From positions 3,322-67,321 of the IMG/VR virus record IMGVR_UViG_3300042301_002383: a DNA stretch of 64,000 nt; one strand, written 5' to 3'. This document shows positions 1-13,127 of the stretch, piece after piece. Within the stretch, counting starts at the first letter, position 1; each line of letters starts with the position of its first letter. The notes beneath the pieces are model-generated. The model saw nothing but the letters and a program-made list of their open reading frames with translations. It did no database searches and had not been told where the DNA came from. Made by a program: the position numbers and the translations under genes. Source of the stretch: a virus. Taxonomy: Duplodnaviria > Heunggongvirae > Uroviricota > Caudoviricetes.

Positions 1-20
1 AACCAATAGACCTACACACT

Positions 21-341
21 ATGGACACTTTGTTCACTTCCCAAATCGAAAAAACTCTAAATTCCAATGTGGAGTTTGAGTTCTCCTTGGACTTCCAAGG
101 TCAAGTTGAATACATTGAGTCGGAGAACACCGACCAATTTTTGGAGTACGAACTCGTACTTCTATTCCTTGTTGAAAAGGATTTGATTCCTATCAACGAG
201 AGAACCGAAGGAGTTGTCACCATCGAGAATGGTGTTGTTGAAATTTTCTACAAGACTTGTACCCAAGTCGGTGAGGATTGGAATGATGATGTGTGGGATG
301 AAAAAACTTCCGAACATTCAGTACAAGATTTGTTGGTGTAA
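21..341 (+). CDS. hypothetical acidic early protein
   Basis: 106-aa ORF with ATG at 21; terminator-like hairpin+T-run follows at ~364-392; no recognisable motif. Confidence 0.5.
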   Translation: MDTLFTSQIEKTLNSNVEFEFSLDFQGQVEYIESENTDQFLEYELVLLFLVEKDLIPINERTEGVVTIENGVVEIFYKTCTQVGEDWNDDVWDEKTSEHSVQDLLV

Positions 342-363
342 TAAAACCACCTACTTTAATAAG

Positions 364-392
364 ACCTCCGATTCTGTCGGGGGTTTTTTTTA
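364..392 (+). terminator. rho-independent terminator (weak stem)
   Basis: CTCCGA-ttctg-TCGGGG hairpin followed by a run of 8 T. Confidence 0.45.
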
Positions 393-420
393 TGTCCAAG
401 AATTTTTCTCGACCTGATCG

Positions 421-512
421 TCCGGTAAGTTTACTGGGGTGTTTACCCAGTATTAATTCTCGGCAGGTCCCTGAACCGGTGTTCTTGTATTACCCAGTAA
501 TGTATTTGGATA
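421..512. repeat. intergenic TTACTGGGG/CCCCAGTAA palindrome module (copy in IG 342-590)
   Basis: AAGTTTACTGGGGTGTTTACCCAGTA ... GTATTACCCAGTAATG. Confidence 0.6.
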
Positions 513-529
513 CCAGGGTCAGATTTAAA

Positions 530-570
530 AAATAAATTTGGTGTATAACAATTATTGTTGTATATTTGTA
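530..570 (+). promoter_or_regulatory. Bacteroidetes-type promoter (-33 TTTGG, -7 TATATTTG)
   Basis: AAAAATAAATTTGG, then 19 nt, then TATATTTG, ending 23 nt before ATG 591; same architecture repeats before at least 7 other plus-strand genes. Confidence 0.6.
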
Positions 571-590
571 GACACTAAAAAATAAAATGT

Positions 591-860
591 ATGACACAAG
601 AAGAAATTGAAATTGTAAAGAAAACTATCTATTCAGTTGTTGAAGGACACGTTGATAGTGAAATTAATTATGAGTGGGTTGGTAGTGATTTTACCGAAAG
701 GATAATGGATAACCTACCGATTGATAAAAAAATGTCTTTCGTTAGGATTGTCCAAAATAGTGGTAGTGGTATTCAATTTGATAACGAATTGTATGTGAAG
801 TTCCTTAATCATATTACCGAATTTCTTTATAGTGGTTTGGAGTTTGAAACCAAAGAATAA
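591..860 (+). CDS. hypothetical protein
   Basis: 89-aa ORF bracketed by promoter (530-570) and terminator (877-903). Confidence 0.55.
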   Translation: MTQEEIEIVKKTIYSVVEGHVDSEINYEWVGSDFTERIMDNLPIDKKMSFVRIVQNSGSGIQFDNELYVKFLNHITEFLYSGLEFETKE

Positions 861-876
861 AATTTTTTAGATTTTA

Positions 877-903
877 ACCCTCACAGAAATGTGGGGGTTT
901 TTT
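877..903 (+). terminator. rho-independent terminator
   Basis: CCCTCACA-gaaa-TGTGGGGG hairpin + TTTTTT. Confidence 0.65.
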
Positions 904-904
904 A

Positions 905-1030
905 TGTCCACAGATTTCCCGTCCCTGATCATCCCATAAAATTACTGGGGTGTATCCGTATATATCTGTAAACGTATTCGATTCCCCAGTAATATTGGGA
1001 GCTCTGATCACAGGTGGATCCTCACCAAAA
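905..1030. repeat. intergenic module: conserved spacer GTCCACAGATTTCCCGTCCCTGATCATCCCATAA + TTACTGGGG ... CCCCAGTAAT palindrome + TGATCACAGGTGGATCC
   Basis: spacer sequence nearly identical at 2880-2915; diverged at 395-425. Confidence 0.6.
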
Positions 1031-1049
1031 AAATTAATTAGTTTTTTTT

Positions 1050-1092
1050 AAAAATAAATTTGGATTATACTCCAGATTAATTTATCTTTGTC
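1050..1092 (+). promoter_or_regulatory. Bacteroidetes-type promoter (-33 TTTGG, -7 TATCTTTG)
   Basis: AAAAATAAATTTGG ... TATCTTTG upstream of ATG 1129. Confidence 0.6.
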
Positions 1093-1128
1093 ATACAATC
1101 ATTTATTAAACCATAAAAAATTAAACAG

Positions 1129-1989
1129 ATGGAAATCGTAGAAAACAATCGGGTTAGTCAGTTCTTGGATAGAACTGGTTTAAATTGGAAAGTCCGTACC
1201 GAAGGACTTCAAACTTCGTCAGGAATTATTATCCCTGATAAAATTGGTATCGTTCGTGAGGATGATAGTACAATCTTGGGTATTCACTCTAATGGTTATG
1301 TACCATATCAGAATGACCAAATGATGGAACTATTGTTCAAAGTGTCCCAACAAACTGGACTTGATGTTCATAGGGGTGGTTTGTTCGGTGGTGGACGAAA
1401 AGTATTCGTTCAGTTAAAATCTAATGACTTAACTTTGGGGACGGATAGAATCGAGGGTTATGTTACTGGGATTAATTCTTTCGATGGTTCGACTTCATTA
1501 TCGTTCGGTCCTAGTTCGAAAACTATCAGTTGTCAAAACACATTCTTCGGTGTGTACAAAGATTTAGATTCAAAGGTACGTCATACAAAGAATATGGAAT
1601 TAAAGATAGAAGATATCTGTCGACAAATTGAGGGTGTAGTACAAGAAGAAAAGAATGTGTTCGGTTCTATCGTTAAAATGAGTGAAACTCGTTTCGATGA
1701 TATTATCAAGGATAGAGTAATCAAATCGTTATTCAATATCGAAAAGAATGTTGATATTAAGGATGTTGATTCATTATCTACCGTGACACAAAATAAATTA
1801 AGTAGATTCTATGTTGACCTTAATGGTGAAATTCAAGAAAAGGGTGATAACATTTGGGGTTTATTTAGTGGTGTAACAAAATACACAACTCATAGTATGG
1901 GTAAGGGTGACAATTCTGAAAATAAGATGTTCGGAACTTACGGAAATCGTGAGAGACAAATCTTCAAGGAACTTGTACATTTGGTGTAA
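1129..1989 (+). CDS. DUF932-like phage/plasmid protein (tentative)
   Basis: 286-aa ORF; segment GINSFDGSTSLSFG resembles the NSHDGSS core of the DUF932/TIGR03299 family, from memory only. Confidence 0.55.
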   Translation: MEIVENNRVSQFLDRTGLNWKVRTEGLQTSSGIIIPDKIGIVREDDSTILGIHSNGYVPYQNDQMMELLFKVSQQTGLDVHRGGLFGGGRKVFVQLKSNDLTLGTDRIEGYVTGINSFDGSTSLSFGPSSKTISCQNTFFGVYKDLDSKVRHTKNMELKIEDICRQIEGVVQEEKNVFGSIVKMSETRFDDIIKDRVIKSLFNIEKNVDIKDVDSLSTVTQNKLSRFYVDLNGEIQEKGDNIWGLFSGVTKYTTHSMGKGDNSENKMFGTYGNRERQIFKELVHLV

Positions 1990-2016
1990 GACATAGGTTA
2001 AAGATTATTTGTTAAA

Positions 2017-2046
2017 CCCTCGGACTTTTAGTTCGGGGGTTTTTTG
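2017..2046 (+). terminator. rho-independent terminator
   Basis: CCCTCGGAC-tttta-GTTCGGGGG (wobble pairs) + TTTTTT. Confidence 0.55.
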
Positions 2047-2084
2047 TTTGATGACCCCGTCACACTGTGGACCGGGTCGGAACT

Positions 2085-2310
2085 TTACTGGGATGTATTA
2101 CCTGTGCACTGTATCTGCACAGCACCGGTGATCAAGTTTACTGGGGTGTCCCAGTAATGTTCACCTGCGCACAGCGCCAATGTTCCTCTTGTACCCGAAG
2201 TACCACAAGTTCCTCAAAAGATGTACCACAAGTACCCGAAGTACCACATGTTCCGACAGAGTGATAAGTTTACTGGGTTATTTGTATTACCCCAGTAATG
2301 TTCCCCCTGT
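2085..2310. repeat. intergenic module with three TTACTGGG units (2087, 2136 perfect hairpin GTTTACTGGGGTGTCCCAGTAATG, 2268) flanking the 9-bp array
   Basis: seen directly. Confidence 0.6.
2192..2256 (+). repeat. tandem 9-bp array (GTACCnnAA, about 7 units)
   Basis: GTACCCGAA GTACCACAA GTTCCTCAA ... GTACCACAA GTACCCGAA GTACCACAT GTTCCGACA seen directly; gives the periodic VPQVPEVPHVP translations of spurious ORFs 2067..2264 and 2180..2362. Confidence 0.6.
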
Positions 2311-2347
2311 GATCACAGGTGAAAAAAAATTCTTAAAAAAAAGTAAA

Positions 2348-2387
2348 ATAATATTTGGATAATAAAGTTTTATGATGTATATTTGTG
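2348..2387 (+). promoter_or_regulatory. Bacteroidetes-type promoter
   Basis: TTTGG at ~2355 and TATATTTG at ~2378-2385, 24 nt before ATG 2409. Confidence 0.6.
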
Positions 2388-2408
2388 TTCACTAAAAATA
2401 TAAATGAT

Positions 2409-2831
2409 ATGAGTATGTTACAAAACATCGGAACCTATAAGGAGTTCTTGAAAAAACAAAAAGAAGAAAGAGAAACTTTCTCGGAAATTGTATCAACTAA
2501 AATCGTAGATGGTTTGACTGACTACATTAAAGATTTTGGTTGGGTTCGTAAAGGTAAAAGTGGTGGACTTCAAGGAGATAAAATCAAAGGAGTTAAGTTC
2601 ACTAAAAACTTCAATGGTAAAGATGTTACTATCGAGTATCGTAACAATTTACGAATTGACAATGACGGGTTACATTACTCGGGTGGTTATAATGAGTTCG
2701 TACATAGTAAGGAACTTGGAAATTCGTTAGAGGTAATTAGAATGAATCACTTCTATTGGAATGGGGAAACTGAAAGTGGTTGTAACTTGGATAGGGTACT
2801 TCAACGAATGGATGATTTCTATTCTAAATAG
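2409..2831 (+). CDS. hypothetical protein
   Basis: ORF-track ORF 2385..2831 starts on GTG inside the -7 box; first ATG (MSMLQNIG...) at 2409 fits the 22-24 nt promoter-to-ATG spacing seen elsewhere. Confidence 0.55.
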   Translation: MSMLQNIGTYKEFLKKQKEERETFSEIVSTKIVDGLTDYIKDFGWVRKGKSGGLQGDKIKGVKFTKNFNGKDVTIEYRNNLRIDNDGLHYSGGYNEFVHSKELGNSLEVIRMNHFYWNGETESGCNLDRVLQRMDDFYSK

Positions 2832-2853
2832 AAAACACACACCGAATTAAAGG

Positions 2854-2882
2854 GTGGGACGAAAGTCTCACCTTTTTTTATG
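2854..2882 (+). terminator. rho-independent terminator
   Basis: GGTGGGAC-gaaa-GTCTCACC + TTTTTTT. Confidence 0.65.
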
Positions 2883-3020
2883 TCCACAGATTTCTCGTCC
2901 CTGATCATCCCATAAGTTTACTGGGTTATGTTGTATTACCCCAGTAATCATTAGCCAGTTTTGCGCGCGCTGATCAGGAAATTTGCGCTGGTTAACAATT
3001 CAACCCAGTAATGTTTAGGA
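2880..3020. repeat. intergenic module (spacer + AAGTTTACTGGGTTATGTTGTATTACCCCAGTAAT + GCGCGCGCTGATCAGG + ACCCAGTAATGTTTAGG)
   Basis: seen directly. Confidence 0.6.
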
Positions 3021-3039
3021 ATGATAGTGCAGGAAAAAA

Positions 3040-3098
3040 TTCTTAAATGTGCACAGTAAAAAGTCTTAAATGTGCGCAGTAAAAAATTCTTAAAAATA
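3040..3098 (+). repeat. 2.5 direct repeats of a 24-bp unit (TCTTAAATGTGCRCAGTAAAAA) abutting the -33 element
   Basis: seen directly; candidate operator or UP element. Confidence 0.55.
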
Positions 3099-3133
3099 AA
3101 TTTGTATAATGAAATAAAAGTTATATCTTTGTC
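3094..3133 (+). promoter_or_regulatory. Bacteroidetes-type promoter
   Basis: AAAAATAAATTTG ... TATCTTTG before ATG 3154. Confidence 0.6.
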
Positions 3134-3153
3134 ATACACTAAAACAAAAAGAT

Positions 3154-3351
3154 ATGGAGTACAAAGTATTAACAAGTTCATCCCCCGAAGGATTGACCGA
3201 AAAAGTAAACAAGTACATTAACGAAGGGTTTATTCCCGTCGGTTCTCATCAAGTTGTAACCCAACGAGAAGTAAATCGTTATAGTGGTTCACAACACATG
3301 GACACACTTATTACACAAGAGTATTCTCAAACTTTAATTAAACAAGATTAA
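3154..3351 (+). CDS. hypothetical small protein
   Basis: 65-aa ORF directly after promoter. Confidence 0.5.
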   Translation: MEYKVLTSSSPEGLTEKVNKYINEGFIPVGSHQVVTQREVNRYSGSQHMDTLITQEYSQTLIKQD

Positions 3352-3352
3352 T

Positions 3353-3550
3353 ATGACAAGGTACGAAGTTTTATCCCCCGACGGGTTTACGATTGAATTC
3401 GATAGACCTTACTACACTTCAAAGGAAAAAGCATTTGAGGCTTTTGACAAATGGAAGGAACGATATAAAGTTCAAGGGTATTATAGTTCAAATAATGGAA
3501 GAATACCTTTGGAAGATTTGGAAGATTATATGTATATTCGTGAAATTTAA
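3353..3550 (+). CDS. hypothetical small protein
   Basis: 65-aa ORF, stop/start coupled (TAATATG) to previous gene. Confidence 0.5.
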   Translation: MTRYEVLSPDGFTIEFDRPYYTSKEKAFEAFDKWKERYKVQGYYSSNNGRIPLEDLEDYMYIREI

Positions 3551-3556
3551 AATTTA

Positions 3557-3658
3557 TGGAAATGAATATTTTATATTATTTATCATTGGGATTTGGGGTT
3601 ATAGTAACCTTCCTGATAATGATTGTATTACTTATTTTATCAATTAAAAAATCAATAG
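3557..3658 (+). CDS. possible 33-aa hydrophobic peptide (MEMNILYYLSLGFGVIVTFLIMIVLLILQLKNQ)
   Basis: hand-translated; single predicted TM helix; below the ORF-track cutoff; coordinates approximate. Confidence 0.25.
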
Positions 3659-3661
3659 AAA

Positions 3662-3934
3662 ATGGCACAGACCCAAACGACATTTAACTTTCATTTAGAC
3701 ACAAAGGTAACGACATGGTATCGTACCGAATTTGAAATTGAAGCTGAAACATTGGAAGAGGCTCATAAGTTAGCAATTGCTTTTCGTGAGAGAGGTGATA
3801 ACACGGAATTGCCGTGGGAACATATTGACGAAACTCTTGAAGGTTTAATACCCGAAGAAAATGGTGGAGAACCTACGGAGGAGTTGTATGACGAGAATGG
3901 TAATATAATTTGGGATAACACTAAATCAATTTAA
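3662..3934 (+). CDS. hypothetical acidic protein
   Basis: 90-aa ORF. Confidence 0.55.
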   Translation: MAQTQTTFNFHLDTKVTTWYRTEFEIEAETLEEAHKLAIAFRERGDNTELPWEHIDETLEGLIPEENGGEPTEELYDENGNIIWDNTKSI

Positions 3935-3935
3935 A

Positions 3936-4250
3936 ATGGAAAATTCAGAAATCATTAATCGTATTACGGACATCTTAAAAGTTAATGGATGTTTTAGTAT
4001 TGGAGAATTAGAAGGTGAGAATAGTATTCTTGTTGGTACATTGGGTAACTATGTAGGACTTGGGGAATATTTTACCGAAGATTATGTAGAAGTAAATGTG
4101 TACGAACCTCGTTCAAGTAGTTCGGACGCTATCGACACCTATGAAGAAAGTTATTGGGAGTTGAATGAGAATGTGTTGGGAGATGTATTACTTTTATGTG
4201 AGCAGTGGGAAGCTGAGTGTATTAGAACAGAAAAGAGAATATCGAATTAA
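3936..4250 (+). CDS. hypothetical acidic protein
   Basis: 104-aa ORF, 1-nt spacing from previous gene; terminator follows. Confidence 0.55.
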   Translation: MENSEIINRITDILKVNGCFSIGELEGENSILVGTLGNYVGLGEYFTEDYVEVNVYEPRSSSSDAIDTYEESYWELNENVLGDVLLLCEQWEAECIRTEKRISN

Positions 4251-4280
4251 TAGTTTTTAGTGTGTGGTTAGTGAATAAGA

Positions 4281-4308
4281 AGGTGGACAGAAATGTTCAC
4301 CTTTTTTT
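4281..4308 (+). terminator. rho-independent terminator
   Basis: GGTGGACA-gaaa-TGTTCACC + TTTTTTT. Confidence 0.65.
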
Positions 4309-4329
4309 ATGTATTACCCTCAGCGCAAA

Positions 4330-4450
4330 CACAGCCCGGACCAGCGCTGAAGTTTACTGGGGTGTCCCAGTAATTATTGGAGATATGATCTGCAGCGTGA
4401 TCTGCTGTTGTATTACCCCAGTAAACATGAGCATTGTTGCGCGCATGCGC
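4330..4450. repeat. intergenic module (CAGCGCTG + GAAGTTTACTGGGGTGTCCCAGTAAT + GTATTACCCCAGTAAACATG + GCGCGCATGCGC)
   Basis: seen directly. Confidence 0.6.
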
Positions 4451-4469
4451 TAACTCAAAAAAATATTTA

Positions 4470-4511
4470 AAAATAAATTTGGATTATAAAAGTATTAGTT
4501 GTATATTTGTG
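4470..4511 (+). promoter_or_regulatory. Bacteroidetes-type promoter
   Basis: AAAAATAAATTTGG ... TATATTTG before ATG 4532. Confidence 0.6.
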
Positions 4512-4531
4512 TACACTAAAAAAACAACACT

Positions 4532-4735
4532 ATGGTAAAAGTTTATTTCGAATTGGATAACGGCAAATATGCTGAACTGGTAGCAATCTTCGATGATGAA
4601 GAAACCTACGATGCGTGTCTACCCGCATTGGAAAAATTGTGTAAAAAAAACAATTTTGATTTGGTAACAGAATCGGTGGACGAAGAAACAATTACTCACT
4701 ACACTAAAAAATCAACAAATGATTTACACTACTAA
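4532..4735 (+). CDS. hypothetical small protein
   Basis: 67-aa ORF. Confidence 0.5.
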   Translation: MVKVYFELDNGKYAELVAIFDDEETYDACLPALEKLCKKNNFDLVTESVDEETITHYTKKSTNDLHY

Positions 4736-5477
4736 AGCTCAAGCAAAAAGATTAACTGGGATATCTTATTTAGGTTCCGTTAATATGACGACCAAACATC
4801 AGAAGGCATTCAAGTACGATGAACTAACATATAGTTTGTACTTAGCACCTGCAAAAATGAGTGGCTACGAGGTTTGTCCTATGAGAACGAAAGAATGTAC
4901 AAAGTTATGTTTGAACGAATCAGGGATGAACACGATGAACATGGAGGACGATAAAATTAATCGTTCACGAATTGCAAAAACTAAATTGTTTTTTGAACAC
5001 AGGGAATTTTTTGTCAATTGGTTGTTTGATGAAATTAAATCAACAGAATTGAAAGCTAAAAAACTGGGGTATAAATTTTCGGTTCGTTTGAATAACACAT
5101 CAGATATAACACCTGAATCATTTTATATTCATGTAAATGATAAACCCGTTAATATTTTACAATACTTTCAACACATTCAATTCTACGATTATACAAAGGT
5201 TCCTAAAAGAACTGAACTACTTAAAAAATATAAGAACTACGATTTAACTTTTTCTTATAGCGGTCACAATTTAAATGAGTGTCATACAATGTTAAATAAT
5301 AACATAAGGGTGGCGGTTGTTTTTAATAAAGTACCTAAAACATTTTGGGATAGGAAAGTAATCGACGGGGATCTTTACGATATGAGGTATAAAGATAAAA
5401 AGAATGTAATCGTTGGACTCAAATATAAACGAGTTCGAAATAAGTTAACAAAGAATAAATTTGTTATTGAACTTTAA
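4719..5477 (+). CDS. hypothetical protein
   Basis: 252-aa ORF overlapping previous gene by 17 nt; Cys-containing, basic C-terminus. Confidence 0.55.
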   Translation: MIYTTKAQAKRLTGISYLGSVNMTTKHQKAFKYDELTYSLYLAPAKMSGYEVCPMRTKECTKLCLNESGMNTMNMEDDKINRSRIAKTKLFFEHREFFVNWLFDEIKSTELKAKKLGYKFSVRLNNTSDITPESFYIHVNDKPVNILQYFQHIQFYDYTKVPKRTELLKKYKNYDLTFSYSGHNLNECHTMLNNNIRVAVVFNKVPKTFWDRKVIDGDLYDMRYKDKKNVIVGLKYKRVRNKLTKNKFVIEL

Positions 5478-5484
5478 TAAATGT

Positions 5485-5511
5485 CCTCACCGAAAGGTGG
5501 GGATTTTTTTT
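5485..5511 (+). terminator. rho-independent terminator
   Basis: CCTCACC-gaaa-GGTGGGG + TTTTTTTT. Confidence 0.65.
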
Positions 5512-5519
5512 GCACATTC

Positions 5520-5650
5520 TTCCGACGCAGCGCGCAACAGCGCTGAAGTTTACTGGGGTAATCCCAGTAATGTTTAGCCAGTTTTGCAGATCATGCGCCG
5601 ATCAGATCCGTATTACACCCCAGTAATGTTTAGGATTATGCATGTCGCCG
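5520..5650. repeat. intergenic module (CAGCGCTG + GAAGTTTACTGGGGTAATCCCAGTAATGTTTAG + GTATTACACCCCAGTAATGTTTAGG)
   Basis: seen directly. Confidence 0.6.
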
Positions 5651-5675
5651 GCAAATATTTTTAAAAAAAGTTTAA

Positions 5676-5714
5676 AATAAATTTGGTGGGTAATAAAAAA
5701 GTATTATCTTTGTA
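5676..5714 (+). promoter_or_regulatory. Bacteroidetes-type promoter
   Basis: TTTAAAATAAATTTGG ... TATCTTTG before ATG 5745. Confidence 0.6.
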
Positions 5715-5744
5715 CTATAATATTAATCACAAAAAAAATCTATT

Positions 5745-6197
5745 ATGGGAACTCGTTCAACTTACCGCATCATTGAGGAATACTCAACAGGTAAAAAAGT
5801 AAAAAAAGTAAAACAGAATGAAATCTGTTTAATCTATCGTCAGTACGACGGATACCCAACAGGTCATCCACTTGAAACCGCTGAATGGTTATCAACAGGG
5901 AAAGTCGTTAATGGGTATGGTGCTAATGAAAAGAAATTAGTATTCAACGGGGCTGGTTGTTTAGCGGCTCAACTCATTTGGAAATTAAAAGCTGGTGAAA
6001 CAGGAAACACCTATGTACAATCTTTGTCAAGTCGTGGAAATTCTTGGGAAGATTATCTTTATGACATTATTGTCAAAGAAGATTATTCGATTGAGTTTGT
6101 TTGTTATGAGAACGATACAACTAAAACTGAATTGTTTCGTGGTACTCCAAGCGCATTTGTTAAAAAATATAAAAAAGAAGAAGTTGAGAAAGCATAA
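5745..6197 (+). CDS. hypothetical protein
   Basis: 150-aa ORF. Confidence 0.55.
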   Translation: MGTRSTYRIIEEYSTGKKVKKVKQNEICLIYRQYDGYPTGHPLETAEWLSTGKVVNGYGANEKKLVFNGAGCLAAQLIWKLKAGETGNTYVQSLSSRGNSWEDYLYDIIVKEDYSIEFVCYENDTTKTELFRGTPSAFVKKYKKEEVEKA

Positions 6198-6231
6198 AGT
6201 TAGATTCAATCTCGGAAAGGGAGAGAATTAT

Positions 6232-6555
6232 ATGAAATGGAAAATAGAATATAACAACGGCTGGGTGAAATATTTTCATCCAGCTGAAGTTCAGTTAATA
6301 CTAACTGATTGCGTTCTGAAAAACAACAGGACAGCAGCGCAGAAGATATTTACTGGGGAAACCACCAAAGTCGTTTGTGCTTATGTTCTTTGTGAGGGAA
6401 TTGAAATCCTTACAGAAGATTTTATTCCTGAAACAACTGCACATTTAAAATACAATCCAAGAGTATTACCCTTTTGGAATTTAAACGGACAGAATGCTGA
6501 CGGAAGCGAGTACAAAGAATTGTTTACGATTGATAGTAAACTTTTCATAAAATAA
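6232..6555 (+). CDS. hypothetical protein
   Basis: in-frame ATG (MKWKIEYNNGW...) inside track ORF 5995..6555, whose 5' part overlaps 5745..6197 out of frame; purine-rich stretch just upstream. Confidence 0.5.
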   Translation: MKWKIEYNNGWVKYFHPAEVQLILTDCVLKNNRTAAQKIFTGETTKVVCAYVLCEGIEILTEDFIPETTAHLKYNPRVLPFWNLNGQNADGSEYKELFTIDSKLFIK

Positions 6556-6589
6556 TTTGGTAAAATAAAATTAAAGTTATATCTTTGTA
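6550..6589 (+). promoter_or_regulatory. Bacteroidetes-type promoter
   Basis: AATAATTTGG ... TATCTTTG before ATG 6618. Confidence 0.55.
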
Positions 6590-6617
6590 TTATTAATTCA
6601 CACTTAAATTTAAAATC

Positions 6618-7100
6618 ATGGGATTAGACATGTATCTGTACAAAAAAACTTATGTACAAAATTGGGAACACAACCCACCTGAACAACATCACCAAATCGA
6701 AATCAAACGAGGGGGTGTATTACGAACCGACATCAAACCAAATCGTATTTGTTACATTACCGAACAGGTAGCATATTGGAGAAAGTTCAATGCGCTTCAC
6801 GGATGGTTTATTAATAATTGTGGTGGTGGGGTTGATGAGTGTCAAGACATTTCTGTTGATGAAGAAAAATTGAAGGAGTTGTTGGAAACTCTAAAAGAAG
6901 TTAGTTCTAATTTCACTAAAGCTGATGAGCTTCTTCCACCAACACAGGGTTTCTTCTTTGGTAGTGATGAGGTTGATGAGTATTACAAAGAAGAAGTAAA
7001 CTCAACTATCAAAATCATTGAGGACTTGTTAGAGGAAAACGAACAATCTAAAGAATATGGATTGTACTCTGGTGAGTTTGAATACAGAGCTTCTTGGTAA
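6618..7100 (+). CDS. hypothetical protein
   Basis: 160-aa ORF, acidic C-terminus. Confidence 0.55.
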   Translation: MGLDMYLYKKTYVQNWEHNPPEQHHQIEIKRGGVLRTDIKPNRICYITEQVAYWRKFNALHGWFINNCGGGVDECQDISVDEEKLKELLETLKEVSSNFTKADELLPPTQGFFFGSDEVDEYYKEEVNSTIKIIEDLLEENEQSKEYGLYSGEFEYRASW

Positions 7101-7117
7101 AATAAAATAACGGGGAT

Positions 7118-7155
7118 ATTATTTGGAATAATAGTATCCCTGTTATATCTTTGTC
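7118..7155 (+). promoter_or_regulatory. Bacteroidetes-type promoter
   Basis: ATTTGG at ~7122, TATCTTTG at ~7146-7153. Confidence 0.55.
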
Positions 7156-7174
7156 AAATATAAATCATACTACT

Positions 7175-7825
7175 ATGCCAAATTGGTGCTACAATCACCT
7201 TACTATAAAAGGTGAAAAAGAAAACTTGGACAGAATTAAATTTCATCTTGAAGATATTGAAAAGAAGGATGATTCGTCCCCTGGTGTTTTTATGGCTCTC
7301 GTCGGTCGTGACCACGCTATTGAGTTAAATGAATACGAACACGGAGGATGGTACGACGCCAACATTAATTACTGGGGCTGTAAGTGGGATGTGTCATACA
7401 ATGAGTCGGGTGTCGAGTATAGTGACGATTCAATAACAATGTCACTCCAAACAGCTTGGTCACCACCAATAAAGTTCATTCAACACTTGGGTAGGTTATT
7501 CAATGTGGAGTGTGAGTTATATTATGAAGAACCAGGTTGTGACTTCTGTGGTAAATCCTACTTCAATAATGAGGATGGATTAACGGAGGAGGATTATTCA
7601 TATGATGAAGGTAGATTTGTTTTCGACAAGGATAATTTCTTTGAGAGCTGTGATGGTGACATTGACTATCTGTTCGAGTGTGATGAAGAAGTAACATTCG
7701 AGTCGGTGAAGGAGAGGTTTCCATTTATTACTGGGGAAGAAGACCTTGAGACATTAGAAGAAATTTTTAACGAAGTAAAAGAAAATTATGGAGAAGAAGC
7801 TGAAAGTAACAACGAGCAAATTTAA
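7175..7825 (+). CDS. highly acidic Cys-containing protein (DNA-mimic / anti-defence candidate)
   Basis: track ORF 7151..7825 starts on TTG inside the -7 box; first ATG (MPNWCYNHL...) at 7175; long D/E-rich C-terminal half. Confidence 0.55.
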   Translation: MPNWCYNHLTIKGEKENLDRIKFHLEDIEKKDDSSPGVFMALVGRDHAIELNEYEHGGWYDANINYWGCKWDVSYNESGVEYSDDSITMSLQTAWSPPIKFIQHLGRLFNVECELYYEEPGCDFCGKSYFNNEDGLTEEDYSYDEGRFVFDKDNFFESCDGDIDYLFECDEEVTFESVKERFPFITGEEDLETLEEIFNEVKENYGEEAESNNEQI

Positions 7826-8045
7826 AAATCCACTTACATTTAATGAGTGGGTAGAGAAGTATAAGGTGTCAAGCCAATATGTAGAACCAACTAAATACTT
7901 TCAAGGTAATGCTGGTTCCCCAAGAATTACTATGGACACCAAGATGGAATTCGATTCGAGTTTCCACAGACGGGATGGTAACAAATTTACTGGGATTTTA
8001 AACAAATTAAAAACAAAAATAAAATGGGTAGAGAAAATCGTTTAA
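7788..8045 (+). CDS. hypothetical protein
   Basis: 85-aa ORF overlapping previous gene by 38 nt. Confidence 0.4.
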   Translation: MEKKLKVTTSKFKNPLTFNEWVEKYKVSSQYVEPTKYFQGNAGSPRITMDTKMEFDSSFHRRDGNKFTGILNKLKTKIKWVEKIV

Positions 8046-8506
8046 CAGGGGGAGTATTCACTGAGATTGTGGGTACCCGAGATAGAATCAGTTCGTATGA
8101 TCGTTTCCTTAATGTGGACATCGATTTAAGTATTCCTCACACCGATGAGCTGGTGAAGTACTGTAATCAGTATAAGAACAGCATCCGTATGATGAAGACC
8201 AACTTCGAGATGTTAGCCAAGTTAGAAGAAATCATTATGCAACTCCGTTCTAAGGAATCAGTGGCTGATGAAATCAAACTGTCTTTGGTTCGTGAGTACA
8301 TCTACGCTCGAGCTCTATTCTATAGAGAGGGTAAAGGTACTAAGGACATTCGAGTTATCGTCGGGAAGACAGATGTGCACGGGACGGACATAGATTTACT
8401 GGGTAACAGTGTGGAGTTTATGGACTTAGCAAAGGAGAAGTTGTTAAAGGCTATGGACCTTGAGATTGATGAGAATGTTAAAGTTCTAAAAAATATTCTA
8501 GCATAA
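8024..8506 (+). CDS. hypothetical protein
   Basis: 160-aa ORF. Confidence 0.55.
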   Translation: MGRENRLTGGVFTEIVGTRDRISSYDRFLNVDIDLSIPHTDELVKYCNQYKNSIRMMKTNFEMLAKLEEIIMQLRSKESVADEIKLSLVREYIYARALFYREGKGTKDIRVIVGKTDVHGTDIDLLGNSVEFMDLAKEKLLKAMDLEIDENVKVLKNILA

Positions 8507-8562
8507 TTTGGAATATTCGAACATAAGTATTAATTTCGTATTACACTTAAACTATTAATCAT

Positions 8563-8886
8563 ATGAATTACTCTCAAGAGTTATCAAAGCTCCGTGATAT
8601 CATTCACCGAGATATCGTCCACAGAACCGTTAGGCTTAATCAAGGGGATGATTTTGAATTAGAATTAACCAGCCCGTTTTCGGTGTGGTTTACCCAAAAC
8701 TTCGACGATGACTACCAAGTCAAAGTTGCTGTTATAGGAATATGTGGTACCACAGGTGAGTTAATCACTCGAGGTATTACAGAGGATGGTTATGGTGACC
8801 TATACTATAACGATCTTACAATGGAACAGTTAGTATTCCTCCACAGACAAATCGAAACAGAATCATACACAATAAAAGTAATTTAA
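8563..8886 (+). CDS. hypothetical protein
   Basis: 107-aa ORF. Confidence 0.55.
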   Translation: MNYSQELSKLRDIIHRDIVHRTVRLNQGDDFELELTSPFSVWFTQNFDDDYQVKVAVIGICGTTGELITRGITEDGYGDLYYNDLTMEQLVFLHRQIETESYTIKVI

Positions 8887-8887
8887 A

Positions 8888-9454
8888 ATGGAAAAGATTT
8901 ATTTAGGATCAGAAGTTATGGTATCGGACCCTTATTACAGTGTCCCTACCTGGTGTCAGCATAAGTTGACAAATGTATTACCTGGTGAGTACTCCTCCAC
9001 AGCATTCAAATCGGATGACACAGGTGGTTGGGGTATGAGATGCGCAGCACTCGTTGCTGTCCATAAAGATTATGTTGAGGATGAATTAGCTTGGAGGACC
9101 GTTACATCATCAACAATTGGTGTTGACTCGGGTCAATGTGGGATATTCGATGTGGAGTCCTACAGGAATGATACCATTGCTGATGAGATAACAGCTCCTG
9201 AGTTGGGCTTTATGTTACCGTGTGATAGTGAGGGAGATAAGTGGTATGAGAAGATGTGCAGATTAACCTCAGCAGATCAACAGTGGGGATCATACAATAC
9301 TGGGGTGGTATCATCTTCAGGTTGTGGAGATGGTTCCTATCGACTTTTAGTAGCAAAACATAAGGGAAAGATAGTAGGAATCGCAATCGATTACCTAATG
9401 TTTAACCTGAAATCCATTCACTTCAATATGATTAAAACTGAAGAATTTGTTTAA
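8888..9454 (+). CDS. hypothetical Cys-rich protein
   Basis: 188-aa ORF, 1-nt spacing from previous gene. Confidence 0.55.
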   Translation: MEKIYLGSEVMVSDPYYSVPTWCQHKLTNVLPGEYSSTAFKSDDTGGWGMRCAALVAVHKDYVEDELAWRTVTSSTIGVDSGQCGIFDVESYRNDTIADEITAPELGFMLPCDSEGDKWYEKMCRLTSADQQWGSYNTGVVSSSGCGDGSYRLLVAKHKGKIVGIAIDYLMFNLKSIHFNMIKTEEFV

Positions 9455-9512
9455 GGGCTTGTTATTAGTCCTTAAACACCGTACCTTTGCGGAATTAACA
9501 AATAAAAAACAG

Positions 9513-9701
9513 ATGAAAAAGATTCACAGTAGAATTCAGCTCTCACCCAATGGTAAGTATTGGGAACGATGGGAGTCGACCGACAGAATCAATTGGAAGA
9601 TTACTCACGGACGAATGTCCTTAGAGGAGGCTCTTAAGAAACAGCAAGCCGTACTCATCCAAAATCACAGAAATCTTCTATCCGACATCCTCAGGAGGTA
9701 G
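9513..9701 (+). CDS. small AP2-like DNA-binding protein (tentative)
   Basis: internal ATG (MKKIHSRIQLSPNGKYWERWES...RMSLEEALKK) of track ORF 9447..9701; the NGK-W...LEEA pattern resembles AP2/integrase-type DNA-binding domains. Confidence 0.4.
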   Translation: MKKIHSRIQLSPNGKYWERWESTDRINWKITHGRMSLEEALKKQQAVLIQNHRNLLSDILRR

Positions 9702-9704
9702 AAG

Positions 9705-9960
9705 GTGGTACAAGTTTACTGGGGAATAAACAACAGCATATGAAAAAGTTCTTAAAAGAATTAGATTGGGTGTGGGATTACTACTTTGCAATATTCCTCT
9801 ACAACGGGAATAAGGTTTATAGGTACCATGAGTATATGACCAAGAAGTGGGGAGAACGGTATACCAACAGTGGGACCTGATCAAGGACTCGGAACATTAC
9901 TGGGGTGATTCACCTCAGGACGGGCAAAGATGGTACATGTTTACTGGGGTAAAATAGTTT
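9705..9960. repeat. three direct TTTACTGGGG copies (~9712, ~9897, ~9941) around a small ORF and between two AP2-like genes
   Basis: seen directly. Confidence 0.5.
9740..9883 (+). CDS. possible 47-aa protein (MKKFLKELDWVWDYYFAIFLYNGNKVY...)
   Basis: hand-translated, below ORF-track cutoff; flanked by TTTACTGGGG repeat copies; coordinates approximate. Confidence 0.3.
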
Positions 9961-10027
9961 GTGTAATATTTTTTTATTTGAATTTATTTTGTTATATTTT
10001 TATATAAACATTTAAATTTAAACACAA

Positions 10028-10213
10028 ATGAAAAAAACAACATCCCGTCGCACCACAGTTACTACATATGTTCCTGTGTCTGACAACATCTATCATGATG
10101 GTTCATCTTACCGTGTACGTGTAAGTGTTAATGGTACTAAGTACTCTAAGAATTTCTCTAGCAAGAGAAAGGCAGTACAGTTCCGTAACGAATTATTCTC
10201 TAAACAAGGATAA
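10028..10213 (+). CDS. small basic AP2/Arm-like DNA-binding protein (tentative)
   Basis: 61 aa; SSYRVRVSVNGTKYSKNFSSKRKAVQF resembles AP2 / integrase Arm-type beta-sheet DNA-binding domains. Confidence 0.5.
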   Translation: MKKTTSRRTTVTTYVPVSDNIYHDGSSYRVRVSVNGTKYSKNFSSKRKAVQFRNELFSKQG

Positions 10214-10237
10214 TTCCACACTTAGACTTGCATTAAG

Positions 10238-10270
10238 AGGTTCCACCACAATGGAACCTTTTTTTTTTAT
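10238..10270 (+). terminator. rho-independent terminator / attenuator
   Basis: AGGTTCCA-ccacaa-TGGAACCT hairpin + TTTTTTTTTT, between 10028..10213 and the next gene. Confidence 0.65.
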
Positions 10271-10280
10271 ATTTATTTGT

Positions 10281-11171
10281 ATGGGAAAATTTGTAAACAA
10301 ACTAGACTACGAGAGATTCGTGAAGAGTCTGAAGGGACCTTTGAAGTCATTAAATGGTGAAATATATTATGTTGCATCGGATACTCTTAGTAGTTTTGGA
10401 TGTTTCTTGAATATTGTAATACGTGAGACTCAGGTCCAACCTGATATAATATTTAAGTTGATGACCGAGCTTGCTGAGAAGTTCAAGCCTATGTATGACG
10501 AGTACATGGATCAATATGGTAGTGGGATGGGTGGAACCATGGTGAGGATCAAGGACCTATTACTTACTGGGGGATTAGATGAATTCATTGGAATTAATTT
10601 AAATAGTTCTATGGACAGTGTATTACCCGTGGAAAAACTTCAATGGGTTAAAGAAGTTCGTCAAGTAAAAACTATAATGACTTTTCTTGAAGACCCCGTG
10701 GGATTTAGATCAGTAATGGAACTTGACGACACCACCTTGGAAAGGGTTAATAGGAGTCTGAAGCAACTACAGTCTCAGAAGAACGTTCCACATAACCTTC
10801 AGGTTCATCTTGACTTCATTGAAGAGGGAACCTTTGATTTAGATATTTCCAATGGAACCAATATTTCAAACAACTTTATTAAAAATATTTACTATAAACT
10901 CCCCGAGAATATTAAACTTAAGTTTGTATGTGTTCCAGGGAACCACAACAAGATTACTGGGATGCTCGACTTCGATTGGAAATCAATCTATGTAGAATTT
11001 CCTTTATCACCTGAAGTAGGTAGAATCGTGAGAGATACCATTAGTTCAGTTTTATCAGATAAGATTAAAGAAATTCTTAAATCAAACGATTTAACCCCCG
11101 TTAACTTTTCGAGTAACTCAACCCATTATGATAAAGCCTATTTCAACTTTAGTTTTAAATGGGTAGGGTAG
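10281..11171 (+). CDS. hypothetical protein
   Basis: track ORF 10125..11171 overlaps previous gene and runs through the terminator; first ATG after the T-run (MGKFVNKLDYERF...) at 10281. An ATG at 10251 inside the hairpin is the alternative. Confidence 0.5.
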   Translation: MGKFVNKLDYERFVKSLKGPLKSLNGEIYYVASDTLSSFGCFLNIVIRETQVQPDIIFKLMTELAEKFKPMYDEYMDQYGSGMGGTMVRIKDLLLTGGLDEFIGINLNSSMDSVLPVEKLQWVKEVRQVKTIMTFLEDPVGFRSVMELDDTTLERVNRSLKQLQSQKNVPHNLQVHLDFIEEGTFDLDISNGTNISNNFIKNIYYKLPENIKLKFVCVPGNHNKITGMLDFDWKSIYVEFPLSPEVGRIVRDTISSVLSDKIKEILKSNDLTPVNFSSNSTHYDKAYFNFSFKWVG

Positions 11172-11230
11172 ACTATATTACGGGGTTCCTACGGAACCCC
11201 TTCATCCCGTACTTATTGTACTATACTAAG

Positions 11231-11261
11231 AACCCTTCGGAAAATCCCTAAGGGTTTTTTT
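11231..11261 (+). terminator. rho-independent terminator
   Basis: ACCCTT-cggaaaatccct-AAGGGT + TTTTTTT; preceded by perfect hairpin GGGGTTCC-tac-GGAACCCC at ~11181-11200. Confidence 0.55.
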
Positions 11262-11369
11262 AATTCCCATAGGATTATTCTAAGATTATCCTGAAGGGGA
11301 CCGAAGGTCCCCGTATAATAATCTGTAAAGTAAATCCCTTACAATATGTAAAGTGCCAAACAAAATGTA

Positions 11370-11450
11370 TCACCCCAGTAATATTAAAGTTGTTTGGCAA
11401 ACTATTTCCCATAGGTGGGTCACCCCAGTAATGTTTGTATTACGGTTCAG
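11370..11450. repeat. two inverted-orientation CACCCCAGTAATRTT copies inside the non-coding hairpin region
   Basis: TATCACCCCAGTAATATTAAAG ... GGTCACCCCAGTAATGTTTG. Confidence 0.5.
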
Positions 11451-12042
11451 GGATTATAGACGTATCACATTAGGACCGTATAAAAGTATTATGAGTATAC
11501 TCGGGGACCTTCGGTCCCCTTCATCCTGTATTACGAGTATTCTATTATACGGGGACACTTCGTGTCCCCTTCAGGGGGAACCTTAGGGACCGATGTATGA
11601 CACATTAATATAATATATAAAGGGTTATACTAAGACACTTGTATGACAGGGATGAAGGGAGGACTCGAAGAGTCCGACCGTAATATATAATGATATTAGG
11701 GGTATATTCTGGTAGAAAAAATAAAATGGTCTGTGATTCGCTCACGGGTCAATCCCCAGGGATATTCCTAGTAAGTGGGAAAAAGTGTTATTTTGTGGAT
11801 AAAATATACCAGAACCCAAAAATGGGATAAAAAAAGATAGTTTTAGATATATTAATTGATCACGATAACCGAACGGTAAAAAACACCGAAAAATATACGG
11901 ATATTACCGTTATAAACAGGAAAAAATTCGGGGTAAAATAAAACCCCTATGGAGGGGTTCTTAGGGGTAATTTTATAGGGGGTAATTGTACGGTCGTGAC
12001 TCCTGTCGGAGACCACGACCTTCAGAGACCTTCATGAATAAT

Positions 12043-12597
12043 CTACTTATTAACTTCTTTATCTAATACTATTCTTATTTCATCTCTTGTTTTATCCTTT
12101 AGGTAACTGTTAATCTTCCTATGTAAAAACTTATGTTCTTTCCTTGTAACCTCCATTAGATTATTAATACTATCATTATAATGATTATGATCTATGTGGT
12201 GAATTTCATTTCCTTTTGTTATCTTTCCAAAATAACTCTCAAATATCTTCCTATGATTCTGTCTTAATGATTCTTCACTATTACCTTTAACTCTTCCTTT
12301 CATTGTGGACCACATTAGATTATCCTTATGATTATTAGTTGTGTCACCATCAACATTTATTACTATAAGTTTACCTTCAAGGTGAGTTGGTTTTGGTAGG
12401 AAGTGTTCTGCTACCAATCTATGTTTATAATCTCTTATCCATTTCCCCTCATATCTAAATTTAAATCTTTCCCTTATCTTTGAACCTGATTTAGTTTTAT
12501 AGGGAATCATGTAGATATTCTCATTTATATTGAAAACATTTCCATATTCATCTATGGTATAATTTGAGAGATATACTCCTCTACATGTTACATTCAT
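12043..12597 (-). CDS. HNH homing endonuclease
   Basis: 184 aa; HNH motif GNEIHHIDHNHYNDSINNLMEVTRKEHKFLH with N-terminal NUMOD-like region; free-standing, not inside another ORF. Confidence 0.8.
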   Translation of the reverse strand: MNVTCRGVYLSNYTIDEYGNVFNINENIYMIPYKTKSGSKIRERFKFRYEGKWIRDYKHRLVAEHFLPKPTHLEGKLIVINVDGDTTNNHKDNLMWSTMKGRVKGNSEESLRQNHRKIFESYFGKITKGNEIHHIDHNHYNDSINNLMEVTRKEHKFLHRKINSYLKDKTRDEIRIVLDKEVNK

Positions 12598-12637
12598 AAC
12601 ACATAATATAAAATATTACCCCCGAAATGTAAAGATA

Positions 12638-12856
12638 TTAAAAGAATGAATCTGGGTACCAATCGTCCAATTGATGTTTATTATCTGTAACTTGTATGTG
12701 GTTTCTAATCATATCTTCTGTTATATCACCCTCATTCATTACCCTTAATGGTTTACCATTGAATATAGGTGAGATTACCTTATGGTATATTATTTCTCCT
12801 TCTGAGTCAAGGATAGTTTCTATCCTTACTTTATAGTTCCCTATTATTTTCTCCAT
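12638..12856 (-). CDS. hypothetical protein
   Basis: 72-aa ORF. Confidence 0.5.
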   Translation of the reverse strand: MEKIIGNYKVRIETILDSEGEIIYHKVISPIFNGKPLRVMNEGDITEDMIRNHIQVTDNKHQLDDWYPDSFF

Positions 12857-12866
12857 ATGTATATTG

Positions 12867-13127
12867 TTATTTTAGTATTCTATCTATGAAGTTCTTGATT
12901 GGATTCTTTTTTCTATTGATTTCCCCCGCTAATTGGACAATGTAGTCCTGATAGAGTTGTTCATCAAAGACATTCACCACCATGGACCGATTTAGTTCCA
13001 TTAAGTCCCTGATTGTTAAATCATATACATCTCTCTTCATTATCACCGTATCATTGTAGAACTTATAGGTGATTGTCACAGGTGTGGTCTTATGGATATC
13101 ATCCATGTAGGGTTTCTTTCTTCTCAT
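12867..13127 (-). CDS. hypothetical protein
   Basis: 86-aa ORF; minus-strand promoter (TTTGGAATATAC ... TATATTTG) about 20 nt upstream at ~13130-13170. Confidence 0.55.
   Translation of the reverse strand: MRRKKPYMDDIHKTTPVTITYKFYNDTVIMKRDVYDLTIRDLMELNRSMVVNVFDEQLYQDYIVQLAGEINRKKNPIKNFIDRILK

Follow-up and report, generated by a model that had tools for sequence, protein, structure and literature searches.

The DNA analysed here is a 64-kb stretch, called the window below, of the tailed-phage record IMGVR_UViG_3300042301_002383. Its subject is an island of 871 nt (window positions 11172-12042) that lies between a plus-strand gene ending at 11171 and a minus-strand HNH endonuclease gene ending at 12043. 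An initial annotation, made from the sequence alone, had described this island as a non-coding cluster of GC-rich hairpins with recurring tails, placed where plus-strand and minus-strand transcription converge. The convergence of the two gene blocks was borne out by the map of open reading frames (ORFs) and by a switch in GC skew at about 12 kb. The island is indeed non-coding. Its largest ORF is 77 aa long, and a small-protein reading of a 34-codon ORF starting at 11726, the only one that looked conserved (in the relative L079), was abandoned because the frame is shifted or stopped in the closest relatives (L010, L013 and L001). Most economically, the island can be read as a cis-acting DNA site present in one copy, with two terminators that shield it from transcription and with strand-specific mini-hairpins that flank a nucleoprotein core.

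Perfect hairpins were counted as stems of at least 6 bp with at least 4 GC and a loop of 3-5 nt. By this census the island holds six (6.9 per kb), versus nine in the other 63 kb (0.14 per kb), a density about 48 times that of the rest of the window. Over 500 dinucleotide shuffles of its sequence the mean was 0.24 hairpins and the maximum 4, indicating an enrichment far beyond chance. The six perfect hairpins are the following.

11182-11200: perfect hairpin, loop tac
11296-11312: perfect hairpin, loop gaa
11503-11519: perfect hairpin, loop ttc
11551-11569: perfect hairpin, loop ttc
11661-11675: perfect hairpin, loop gaa
11942-11959: perfect hairpin, loop atgg

Two further structures can be added: at 11231-11263, a 7-bp stem that encloses a 12-nt loop and runs into T7, and at 11992-12018, a composite hairpin. 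The long-loop structure and one of the perfect hairpins are intrinsic terminators, one per strand, in line with the earlier proposal that some of the hairpins terminate transcription. The five remaining perfect hairpins and the composite one represent six copies of a common unit (U1, U3, U4, U5, U6 and U8). The island and its right-hand neighbour are made up as follows.

11179-11204, minus strand: unit U1, minus-strand sequence TGAAGGGGTTCC-GTA-GGAACCCCGTA, with an 8-bp stem at 11182-11200 and a GTA loop
11228-11263, plus strand: intrinsic terminator of the plus-strand block, AACCCTT...AAGGGTT stem followed by T7, invariant among close relatives
11290-11320, plus strand: unit U3, CCTGAAGGGGACC-GAA-GGTCCCCGTATAATA, with a 7-bp stem and a GAA loop
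11355-11443, plus strand: left sub-core, with an inverted repeat, two direct copies of CACCCCAGTAAT (11371 and 11421) and TGTATTAC at 11436
11496-11534 (core 11502-11523), minus strand: unit U4, minus-strand sequence GGATGAAGGGGACC-GAA-GGTCCCCGAGTATAC, flanked by TGTATTAC at 11527
11543-11576 (core 11548-11573), minus strand: unit U5, minus-strand sequence CCCTGAAGGGGACAC-GAA-GTGTCCCCGTATAATA
11594-11648, plus strand: direct repeat TGTATGACA, with copies at 11594 and 11640 that bracket the A+T-rich tract ATTAATATAATATATAAAGGGTTATAC
11650-11687, plus strand: unit U6, class B, GGATGAAGG-GA-GGACTC-GAA-GAGTCC-GA-CCGTAATAT
11700-11933, no strand assigned: conserved core, with invariant boxes, phased repeats, a variable spacer and AACAGGAAAAAATTCGGGG
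11930-11959, minus strand: intrinsic terminator of the minus-strand block, AACCCCT-ccat-AGGGGTT followed by TTTTATTTTA on the minus strand
11988-12027, minus strand: unit U8, class B variant, minus-strand sequence CTGAAGGTCGTGGTCTCC-GACA-GGAGTCACGACCGTACA
12043-12856, minus strand: variable cargo outside the element, the HNH endonuclease gene (12043-12597) and a 72-aa ORF (12638-12856)

In the orientation used in the initial annotation, all six units share flanks that read TA(T)TACGG...CCTTCA(T/G). The recurrence of these tails is real: the pattern ACGG-N(8-30)-CCTTCA occurs six times in the window against 1.07 expected, and five of the six lie inside the island, as do four of the five occurrences of CCCCTTCA. 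Read on its functional strand, which is plus for U3 and U6 and minus for U1, U4, U5 and U8, the unit consists of (GGA/CC)TGAA, a perfect GC stem of 6-9 bp, a G-N-A or G-N-N-A loop, and GYAWWA. In the class-B unit U6, tandem G.A mismatches stand between a 6-bp stem and an outer GG/CC pair. U6 (plus) is placed to the left of the core and U8 (minus) to its right. Within the window the unit is confined to this single locus, where the mixed orientations of its copies, their irregular spacing (50-440 nt) and the failure to detect a tandem array do not fit a CRISPR array or a solitary repeat of the RNA anti-CRISPR kind.

Relatives of the island were retrieved with DNA patterns, using the hairpin unit first and then two motifs of the core; locus searches seeded with proteins found none. 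Viral and metagenome collections yielded about 55 contigs of related phages that carry the island, some of them 316-335 kb long, and in every relative the island lies between converging gene blocks. When units were read as 5'-TGAAGG...CCG-3', 185 instances gave 42 distinct ones, with GNA loops in 22, GNNA loops in 14 and other loops in 6. Loops of the G-N-A or G-N-N-A type, present in 36 of the 42, are strand-specific relative to the flanks, loop identity going with one strand. A C:G pair closes nearly all loops, and the commonest unit contains CCGAAGG. A hairpin census that made no use of the flanks returned 118 distinct hairpins; TGAA lies directly 5' of the stem in 81 of them, and 76 of these 81 carry G...A loops. 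Most of the others are of the class-B form TGAAGG-GA-stem-loop-stem-GA-CCG, the stem being split by tandem G.A mismatches.

The stems were informative as well. In 15 distinct variants of the 8-bp stem, 120 of 120 cells are Watson-Crick pairs, with no wobble and no one-sided changes. Four positions vary, always on both sides (21 cells), which gives a covariation of 0.50 compared to 0.09 in shuffles. Within the island itself, the stems of U1 (GGGGTTCC versus GGGGGACC) and U5 differ from those of relatives by compensatory changes. Stems that change only by double substitutions indicate that selection keeps a perfect hairpin on both strands. The units are thus a conserved family selected for hairpin formation, and the earlier suggestion that their tails mark something beyond termination was well founded.

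The most widely conserved part of the island is the core, some 190 bp in its right half. Two invariant boxes, GGGTCAATCCC (11746-11756) and TGATCACGATAA (11857-11868), each present once in the window, keep a spacing of 121-123 nt across 35 distinct lineages. Between them lie repeats of the type GTGGG(A/G)AAA phased at 10 bp (11775, 11785 and 11795), the third of which includes TGTGGATAA, a DnaA-box consensus (11794-11802). The second box is followed by a variable spacer with an 11-nt lineage-specific insert (11869-11879), and then by the conserved AACAGGAAAAAATTCGGGG at 11915-11933. The insert, CCGAACGGTAA, stands directly 3' of the invariant GATCACGATAA and is present only in the window, L123, L127 and L143; several metagenome contigs end there. 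A cluster of DnaA boxes was considered and dismissed, given one consensus box in the island and another that occurs by chance in a coding region. The motif GTGGRDRAW is not enriched across the window. In one subgroup (L125, L128, L137, L142, L152, L161, L166 and L009) the three GTGGG repeats are inverted in place (CCACTTTTCCCCACTTTTTCCACAAAAT) and the boxes stay 121 nt apart; in another subgroup the GTGGG block is displaced. Inversion in place and shifting are the behaviour of a protein-binding site, not of an RNA helix. RNAalifold, run on the core (11686-11943) with 31 sequences, gave no consensus structure, with 3 invariant pairs and a covariation term of 0. The lack of a consensus fold and of a host-type promoter, together with the broken ORF, points to the core as predicted protein-binding DNA rather than an RNA or a gene.

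To the left of the core, the AT-rich direct repeat GTATGACA noted initially was located at 11595 and 11641. The two copies of CACCCCAGTAAT had been described as inverted; they are direct repeats 50 nt apart (11371-11382 and 11421-11432). The inverted repeat of the left sub-core is GCCAAACAA/TTGTTTGGC (11355-11363 and 11390-11398), which in L079 takes the form GCCAGACAA/TTGTCTGGC. The motifs of this sub-core belong to families that are elsewhere confined to intergenic modules of the plus-strand block.

Between close relatives the island is 77-95% identical per 100 nt, compared with 54-91% for the adjacent gene and up to 98% for some other coding stretches. The positions of the units around the core are kept, U4/5 in 26 of 32 lineages and U8 in 22 of 27; U1 and U3, in the left half, are kept in only about one third. 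Nucleotide and protein searches among cultured phages found no relative, the only match being 49 nt inside the HNH gene (Tenacibaculum phage). A search of 185,579 bacterial genomes returned 4 chance-level matches to the units, and on this ground an origin of the units from REP-like (repetitive extragenic palindromic) sequences of the host was rejected. The gene always found to the left of the island (10290-11171) encodes a protein of about 290 aa with 109 homologues (46-97% identity), all of them in this phage family; its AlphaFold model is confident (pLDDT, the predicted local distance difference test score, of 85) and comprises two alpha/beta modules.

U8 is the right edge of the conserved island, where homology to relatives stops: it ends at about 11997-12007 and resumes at 12867. 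The product of 12043-12597 was correctly called an HNH endonuclease (PHROG E=1e-18). A functional link between this nuclease and the hairpins, also proposed, is not supported: the HNH gene is missing from most relatives, and these keep the island whatever the slot contains, so that the island is independent of the HNH gene. The slot is occupied by a TnpB/Cas12f-like gene in L012 and L023, a zinc-finger nuclease-like gene in L033, another HNH gene in L079, and genes for unknown proteins of 462 aa in L010 and of 354 aa in L013 and L098.

Transcription of the two blocks appears to be of the host type. Nineteen full Bacteroidota-type promoters (TTTG-N17-22-TAnnTTTG) precede genes of both blocks (537-7153, plus strand; 13132-54599, minus strand), and none is found in the island. 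The thymidylate synthase encoded at 51332-52495 (387 aa) has its closest cultured relative in Flavobacterium phage immuto, at 60% identity; spanning a 266-position Pfam profile end to end, it has about 120 aa extra. The affinity of this enzyme and the 19 promoters indicate that the host is a member of the Bacteroidota, whose polymerase transcribes both blocks. TATATTAC was considered as an early promoter of the phiKZ type, but the literature gave no confirmation, and the idea was dropped as unneeded, since both blocks have Bacteroidota-type promoters. Terminators throughout the genome have longer loops, four of them containing GAAA, and T-runs. The units favour triloops, and no T-run is found in any of the six flanked units, which sets them apart from intrinsic terminators. 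On the island, ARAGORN predicted 0 tRNA or tmRNA genes, and Rfam gave 0 matches at the gathering score, with three at E 1.5-6, far under the thresholds. The cluster of small structured RNAs that had been envisaged is therefore not supported by tRNA genes, an Rfam family, a host-type promoter in the island or a consensus fold of the core.

Against this background we considered what the units may do. That they act in RNA, as additional 3'-end hairpins of the converging transcription units next to a core that is a separate regulatory DNA site, is doubtful. They would then be backup or bidirectional terminators, barriers to 3' exonucleases or sites for RNA-binding proteins, like the REP sequences and bacterial interspersed mosaic elements (BIMEs) at Escherichia coli operon ends. 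The position of the island exactly at the convergence of the two blocks fits this idea, and so does the finding that RNA of the island folds far below shuffled controls (z = -11.7 for the plus strand, -6.2 for the minus strand). U1 and U8 are transcribed, since each lies between a stop codon and a terminator, and U8 has the G-N-N-A orientation in the minus-strand transcript; loops of the G-N-R-A type are good RNA loops, and the genome's own terminators often use GAAA. However, U1, placed in the 3' untranslated region of the plus-strand gene ending at 11171, has its G-N-A loop on the minus strand, the wrong orientation for that mRNA, which argues against an mRNA-level role of this copy. The four internal units stand behind terminators with no promoter, and the six units do without the T-runs that terminators use genome-wide. 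Moreover, triloops dominate and the stems never contain G.U, which is unusual in RNA helices, and the units are limited to one locus, with no copies at the ends of other operons in the window. A packaging or terminal site, be it pac, cos, a terminal-repeat boundary or a T5-like injection stop with terminase or host proteins bound to the repeats, is unlikely. Phased A-tract repeats are typical of small-terminase sites, the locus is single-copy, and contig ends pile up near GATCACGATAA: five true ends lie 2-13 nt after it, and within 180 nt of it 14 loci come to an end, 12 of which are true contig ends. The anatomy also resembles Repeat Region 3 of T5 (bioRxiv 10.1101/866236). Yet many contigs cross the island without a break, and further ends lie at scattered points within it. 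Each end in the pile-up sits where an invariant block meets lineage-specific sequence, that is, where assembly graphs branch in mixed strains, so the pile-up is better explained by assembly branching than by physical termini, and it was not retained as evidence of such termini. The start of the window, within 191 nt of the end of L012, was likewise discarded as a genome end. In other contigs the plus-strand block continues with plus-strand genes for about 8 kb further upstream, which places it away from a genome end, unlike the T5-type location; there is also a single DnaA box and no terminase gene nearby, and a scan of 40 ORFs identified no replication or packaging gene near the island.

It is very unlikely that the hairpins serve as promoters for a polymerase like the virion RNA polymerase (vRNAP) of phage N4 and start short non-coding transcripts, one of which might span about 11203 to the terminator at 11263. 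Stem length, G-N-A triloops, C:G closing pairs and conserved flanks fit the rules for N4 early promoters (PMC4496689, PMC13037366), and a canonical terminator does follow U1 at about 55 nt in the direction predicted for transcription. On the other hand, the window has no giant polymerase gene (its largest ORF is 631 aa), both blocks use host-type promoters, no gene or conserved RNA structure lies downstream of the units, and several of the predicted transcripts would merely be antisense to variable cargo. Still more remote is the notion that the units are scars or miniatures of a hairpin-dependent mobile element, such as the ends of IS200/IS605 insertion sequences or elements of REP-associated tyrosine transposases (RAYTs), at a recombination hot spot. 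The short conserved flanks, with their TTAC-like and TTCA-like tetranucleotides, recall the ends of IS608, and a hot spot for cargo exchange with TnpB/Cas12f-like genes (L012, L023) or, in other relatives, nuclease genes lies immediately to the right. But neither the window nor the relatives' loci showed a Y1 transposase or RAYT, and the stems are perfect, unlike the imperfect, bulged hairpins of IS200/IS605 ends. The units are dispersed neither in the phage nor, with only chance-level matches, among bacterial genomes, and divergent lineages keep them in the same positions and orientations.

The reading we favour, with a probability of roughly one third, is an origin-like function in which the hairpins serve as single-strand initiation signals. 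We infer a DNA-level action of the hairpins, a role for them in priming synthesis and a possible origin at this site. The two terminators, one on each side, would exclude converging transcripts from an interior of about 670 bp, the right half of which would be a protein-binding core with boxes at a fixed distance, three phased repeats and A+T-rich tracts. The six mini-hairpins, around and to the left of this core, would form in DNA, either extruded from the supercoiled duplex or on transient single strands. A phage protein would recognise them in a strand-specific manner, most likely as signals for priming at a replication origin, and U6 (plus) and U8 (minus) would direct outward synthesis from the core in opposite directions. 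What favours this reading is the likeness of the phased repeats, the A+T tracts and the opposed hairpins, with conserved flanks and ssiA-like loops, to known priming sites. C-G(N)NA-G is the motif of an extraordinarily stable DNA mini-hairpin, reported at the priming sites of G4 and St-1, in ssiA of the plasmid RSF1010 (CCGAAGG) and in N4 promoters, and GTTA and GAAA loops are those of the priming hairpins of St-1/alpha3 and G4 (PMC13037366). In N4 promoters, the C:G closing pair and the loop with 5' G and 3' A are needed for extrusion at physiological supercoiling and for resistance to single-stranded DNA-binding protein; N4 vRNAP promoters have a template-strand hairpin with a 5-7 bp stem, C:G closing and a 3-nt loop with 5' G and 3' A (PMC4496689). 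The present family has GNA triloops in 22 of 42 distinct units, C:G closing nearly throughout and stems of 6-9 bp. As with the single-strand initiation (ssi) hairpins of RSF1010, its units lie on opposite strands, have conserved flanks and include the mini-hairpin CCGAAGG.

Several points weigh against an origin. Among the genes of the 64-kb window, none was recognised as a replication gene, primase or initiator, and the product of the gene at 10290-11171 has no significant match in Pfam, PHROGs or PDB. The phased 10-nt GTGGG repeats, which are accompanied by A+T tracts, are short and number only three or four, and the island has a single consensus DnaA box, with another that occurs by chance in a coding region. 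A junction of converging gene blocks is more typical of a replication terminus than of an origin. The low folding energy of plus-strand RNA and the suitability of G-N-R-A loops for RNA must be counted here too, as must the modest retention of U1 and U3.

Tentatively, the suggestion can be extended to the whole family of ~320-kb Bacteroidota phages, which may use extrudable N4-type mini-hairpins with TGAA/GYAWWA flanks as strand-specific initiation signals, for replication priming or for RNA synthesis on single-stranded DNA, around a nucleoprotein core of fixed geometry. If true, this would be an origin or promoter architecture undescribed for tailed phages with genomes this large, at a locus that also anchors an adjacent hot spot of nuclease cargo, including a TnpB/Cas12f-like gene with a mini repeat array. 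To our knowledge, hardly any origins or other cis-acting sites of giant phages are known, and there is no description of one from Bacteroidota jumbo phages. The locus offers a precise and testable candidate, with one site, dozens of environmental lineages and a defined unit whose loop chemistry matches RSF1010 ssiA, the G4 origin and N4 promoters, the few known cases of protein-started synthesis on folded single-stranded DNA. Were it an origin, metagenome coverage could reveal the direction of replication and the growth state of this phage group, and there would be a new hairpin-recognising enzyme to seek. Even as a zone of termination or insulation only, it would be a useful marker, since its ultraconservation breaks metagenome assemblies exactly there.

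The surroundings of the island gave some further observations. The cargo-exchange hot spot immediately to the right of U8 (window 11997-12866; L010, L012, L013, L023, L033, L079 and L098) always has its junction at ...CCTTCAG, and the window has a duplicated ACCTTCA there (12018-12034). The TnpB/Cas12f-like gene (455 aa; PF07282 E=2e-14, PF01385) and a repeat of about 37 nt that precedes it, GTTGTGAATACCATTACTTTGAAAGGTTTATACAAC, were seen in L023 (6995-7163 and 7335-8702) and L012 (267-956). With a period of 64-66 nt and 2.6 copies plus degenerate ones, the repeat might belong to TnpB or form a miniature CRISPR-like array of type V carried by the phage. In the plus-strand block, many genes have their own promoter and terminator, leaving intergenic gaps of 270-1100 nt. 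Two octamers are confined to this block and the island (window 1-11650; for example 2085-2160, 2265-2300, 2915-2950, 4350-4425 and 5550-5626): CCCAGTAA/TTACTGGG has 32 matches versus 1.65 expected, 31 of them before 11432, and TGTATKAC has 23 versus 7 expected, all before 11648. Between a terminator and the next host-type promoter they build composite modules (such as aagTTTACTGGGttattTGTATTACCCCAGTAAT), along with hairpins such as TTTACTGGGGtgtCCCAGTAAT; these modules are probably operator-like sites for a regulator of the plus-strand block. Finally, TGATCA is rare in the window, with 13 sites versus about 30 expected. Eight of the 13 lie in the first 12 kb: intergenic modules of the plus-strand block account for six, the small-ORF region (9878) for one and the invariant box of the island for one. 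The window encodes a C5 methylase and an N6/N4 DNA methylase.

Among systems already described, bacterial REP/BIME sequences share with the island palindromic units of alternating orientation that are extragenic and lie at the ends of converging transcription units. REPs are imperfect, begin with GTAG and are dispersed in hundreds of copies; the units described here differ in being perfect and restricted to one locus, and bacterial genomes lack them. A parallel in overall anatomy is Repeat Region 3 (iss) of T5, a 1.2-kb untranslated block of direct and inverted repeats, palindromes and DnaA boxes with fixed spacers, which is better conserved than the neighbouring ORFs and has an HNH insertion in some relatives (bioRxiv 10.1101/866236). 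The island is likewise an untranslated block dense in repeats and palindromes, with fixed spacers, a DnaA-box consensus and better conservation than the adjacent ORFs. It differs in having one DnaA box where T5 has eight paired ones, in its repeat families, and in belonging to an unrelated host and phage lineage. With the N4 early promoters used by the virion RNA polymerase, the units have in common the short perfect stem, the 3-nt loop with 5' G and 3' A, the C:G closing pair and strand-specific recognition (PMC4496689). They differ from these in their longer stems (6-9 bp), their flanks and their clustering at operon ends, with no downstream genes and no vRNAP-like gene in the window.

In the unit itself there is a likeness to oriV of RSF1010, with ssiA and ssiB, and to complementary-strand origins of the G4 and St-1 type. 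The C-G(N)NA-G loops are the same (CCGAAGG in ssiA, GCGAAAGC in G4 and GCGTTAGC in St-1), as are the conserved single-stranded flanks, the copies on opposite strands, and the adjoining short direct repeats and A+T-rich DNA (PMC13037366). RSF1010 has two units and 20-bp iterons, compared to six units and a few 10-nt repeats in the island. Its initiators are RepA/B'/C, for which no homologue is known here, and the present site, with its putative origin role, occupies the convergent junction of a phage of about 320 kb. Hairpin-rich cis sites and mini-hairpin initiation signals are thus already known; the family, the unit and the core reported here are undescribed, and come from phages without a cultured representative.

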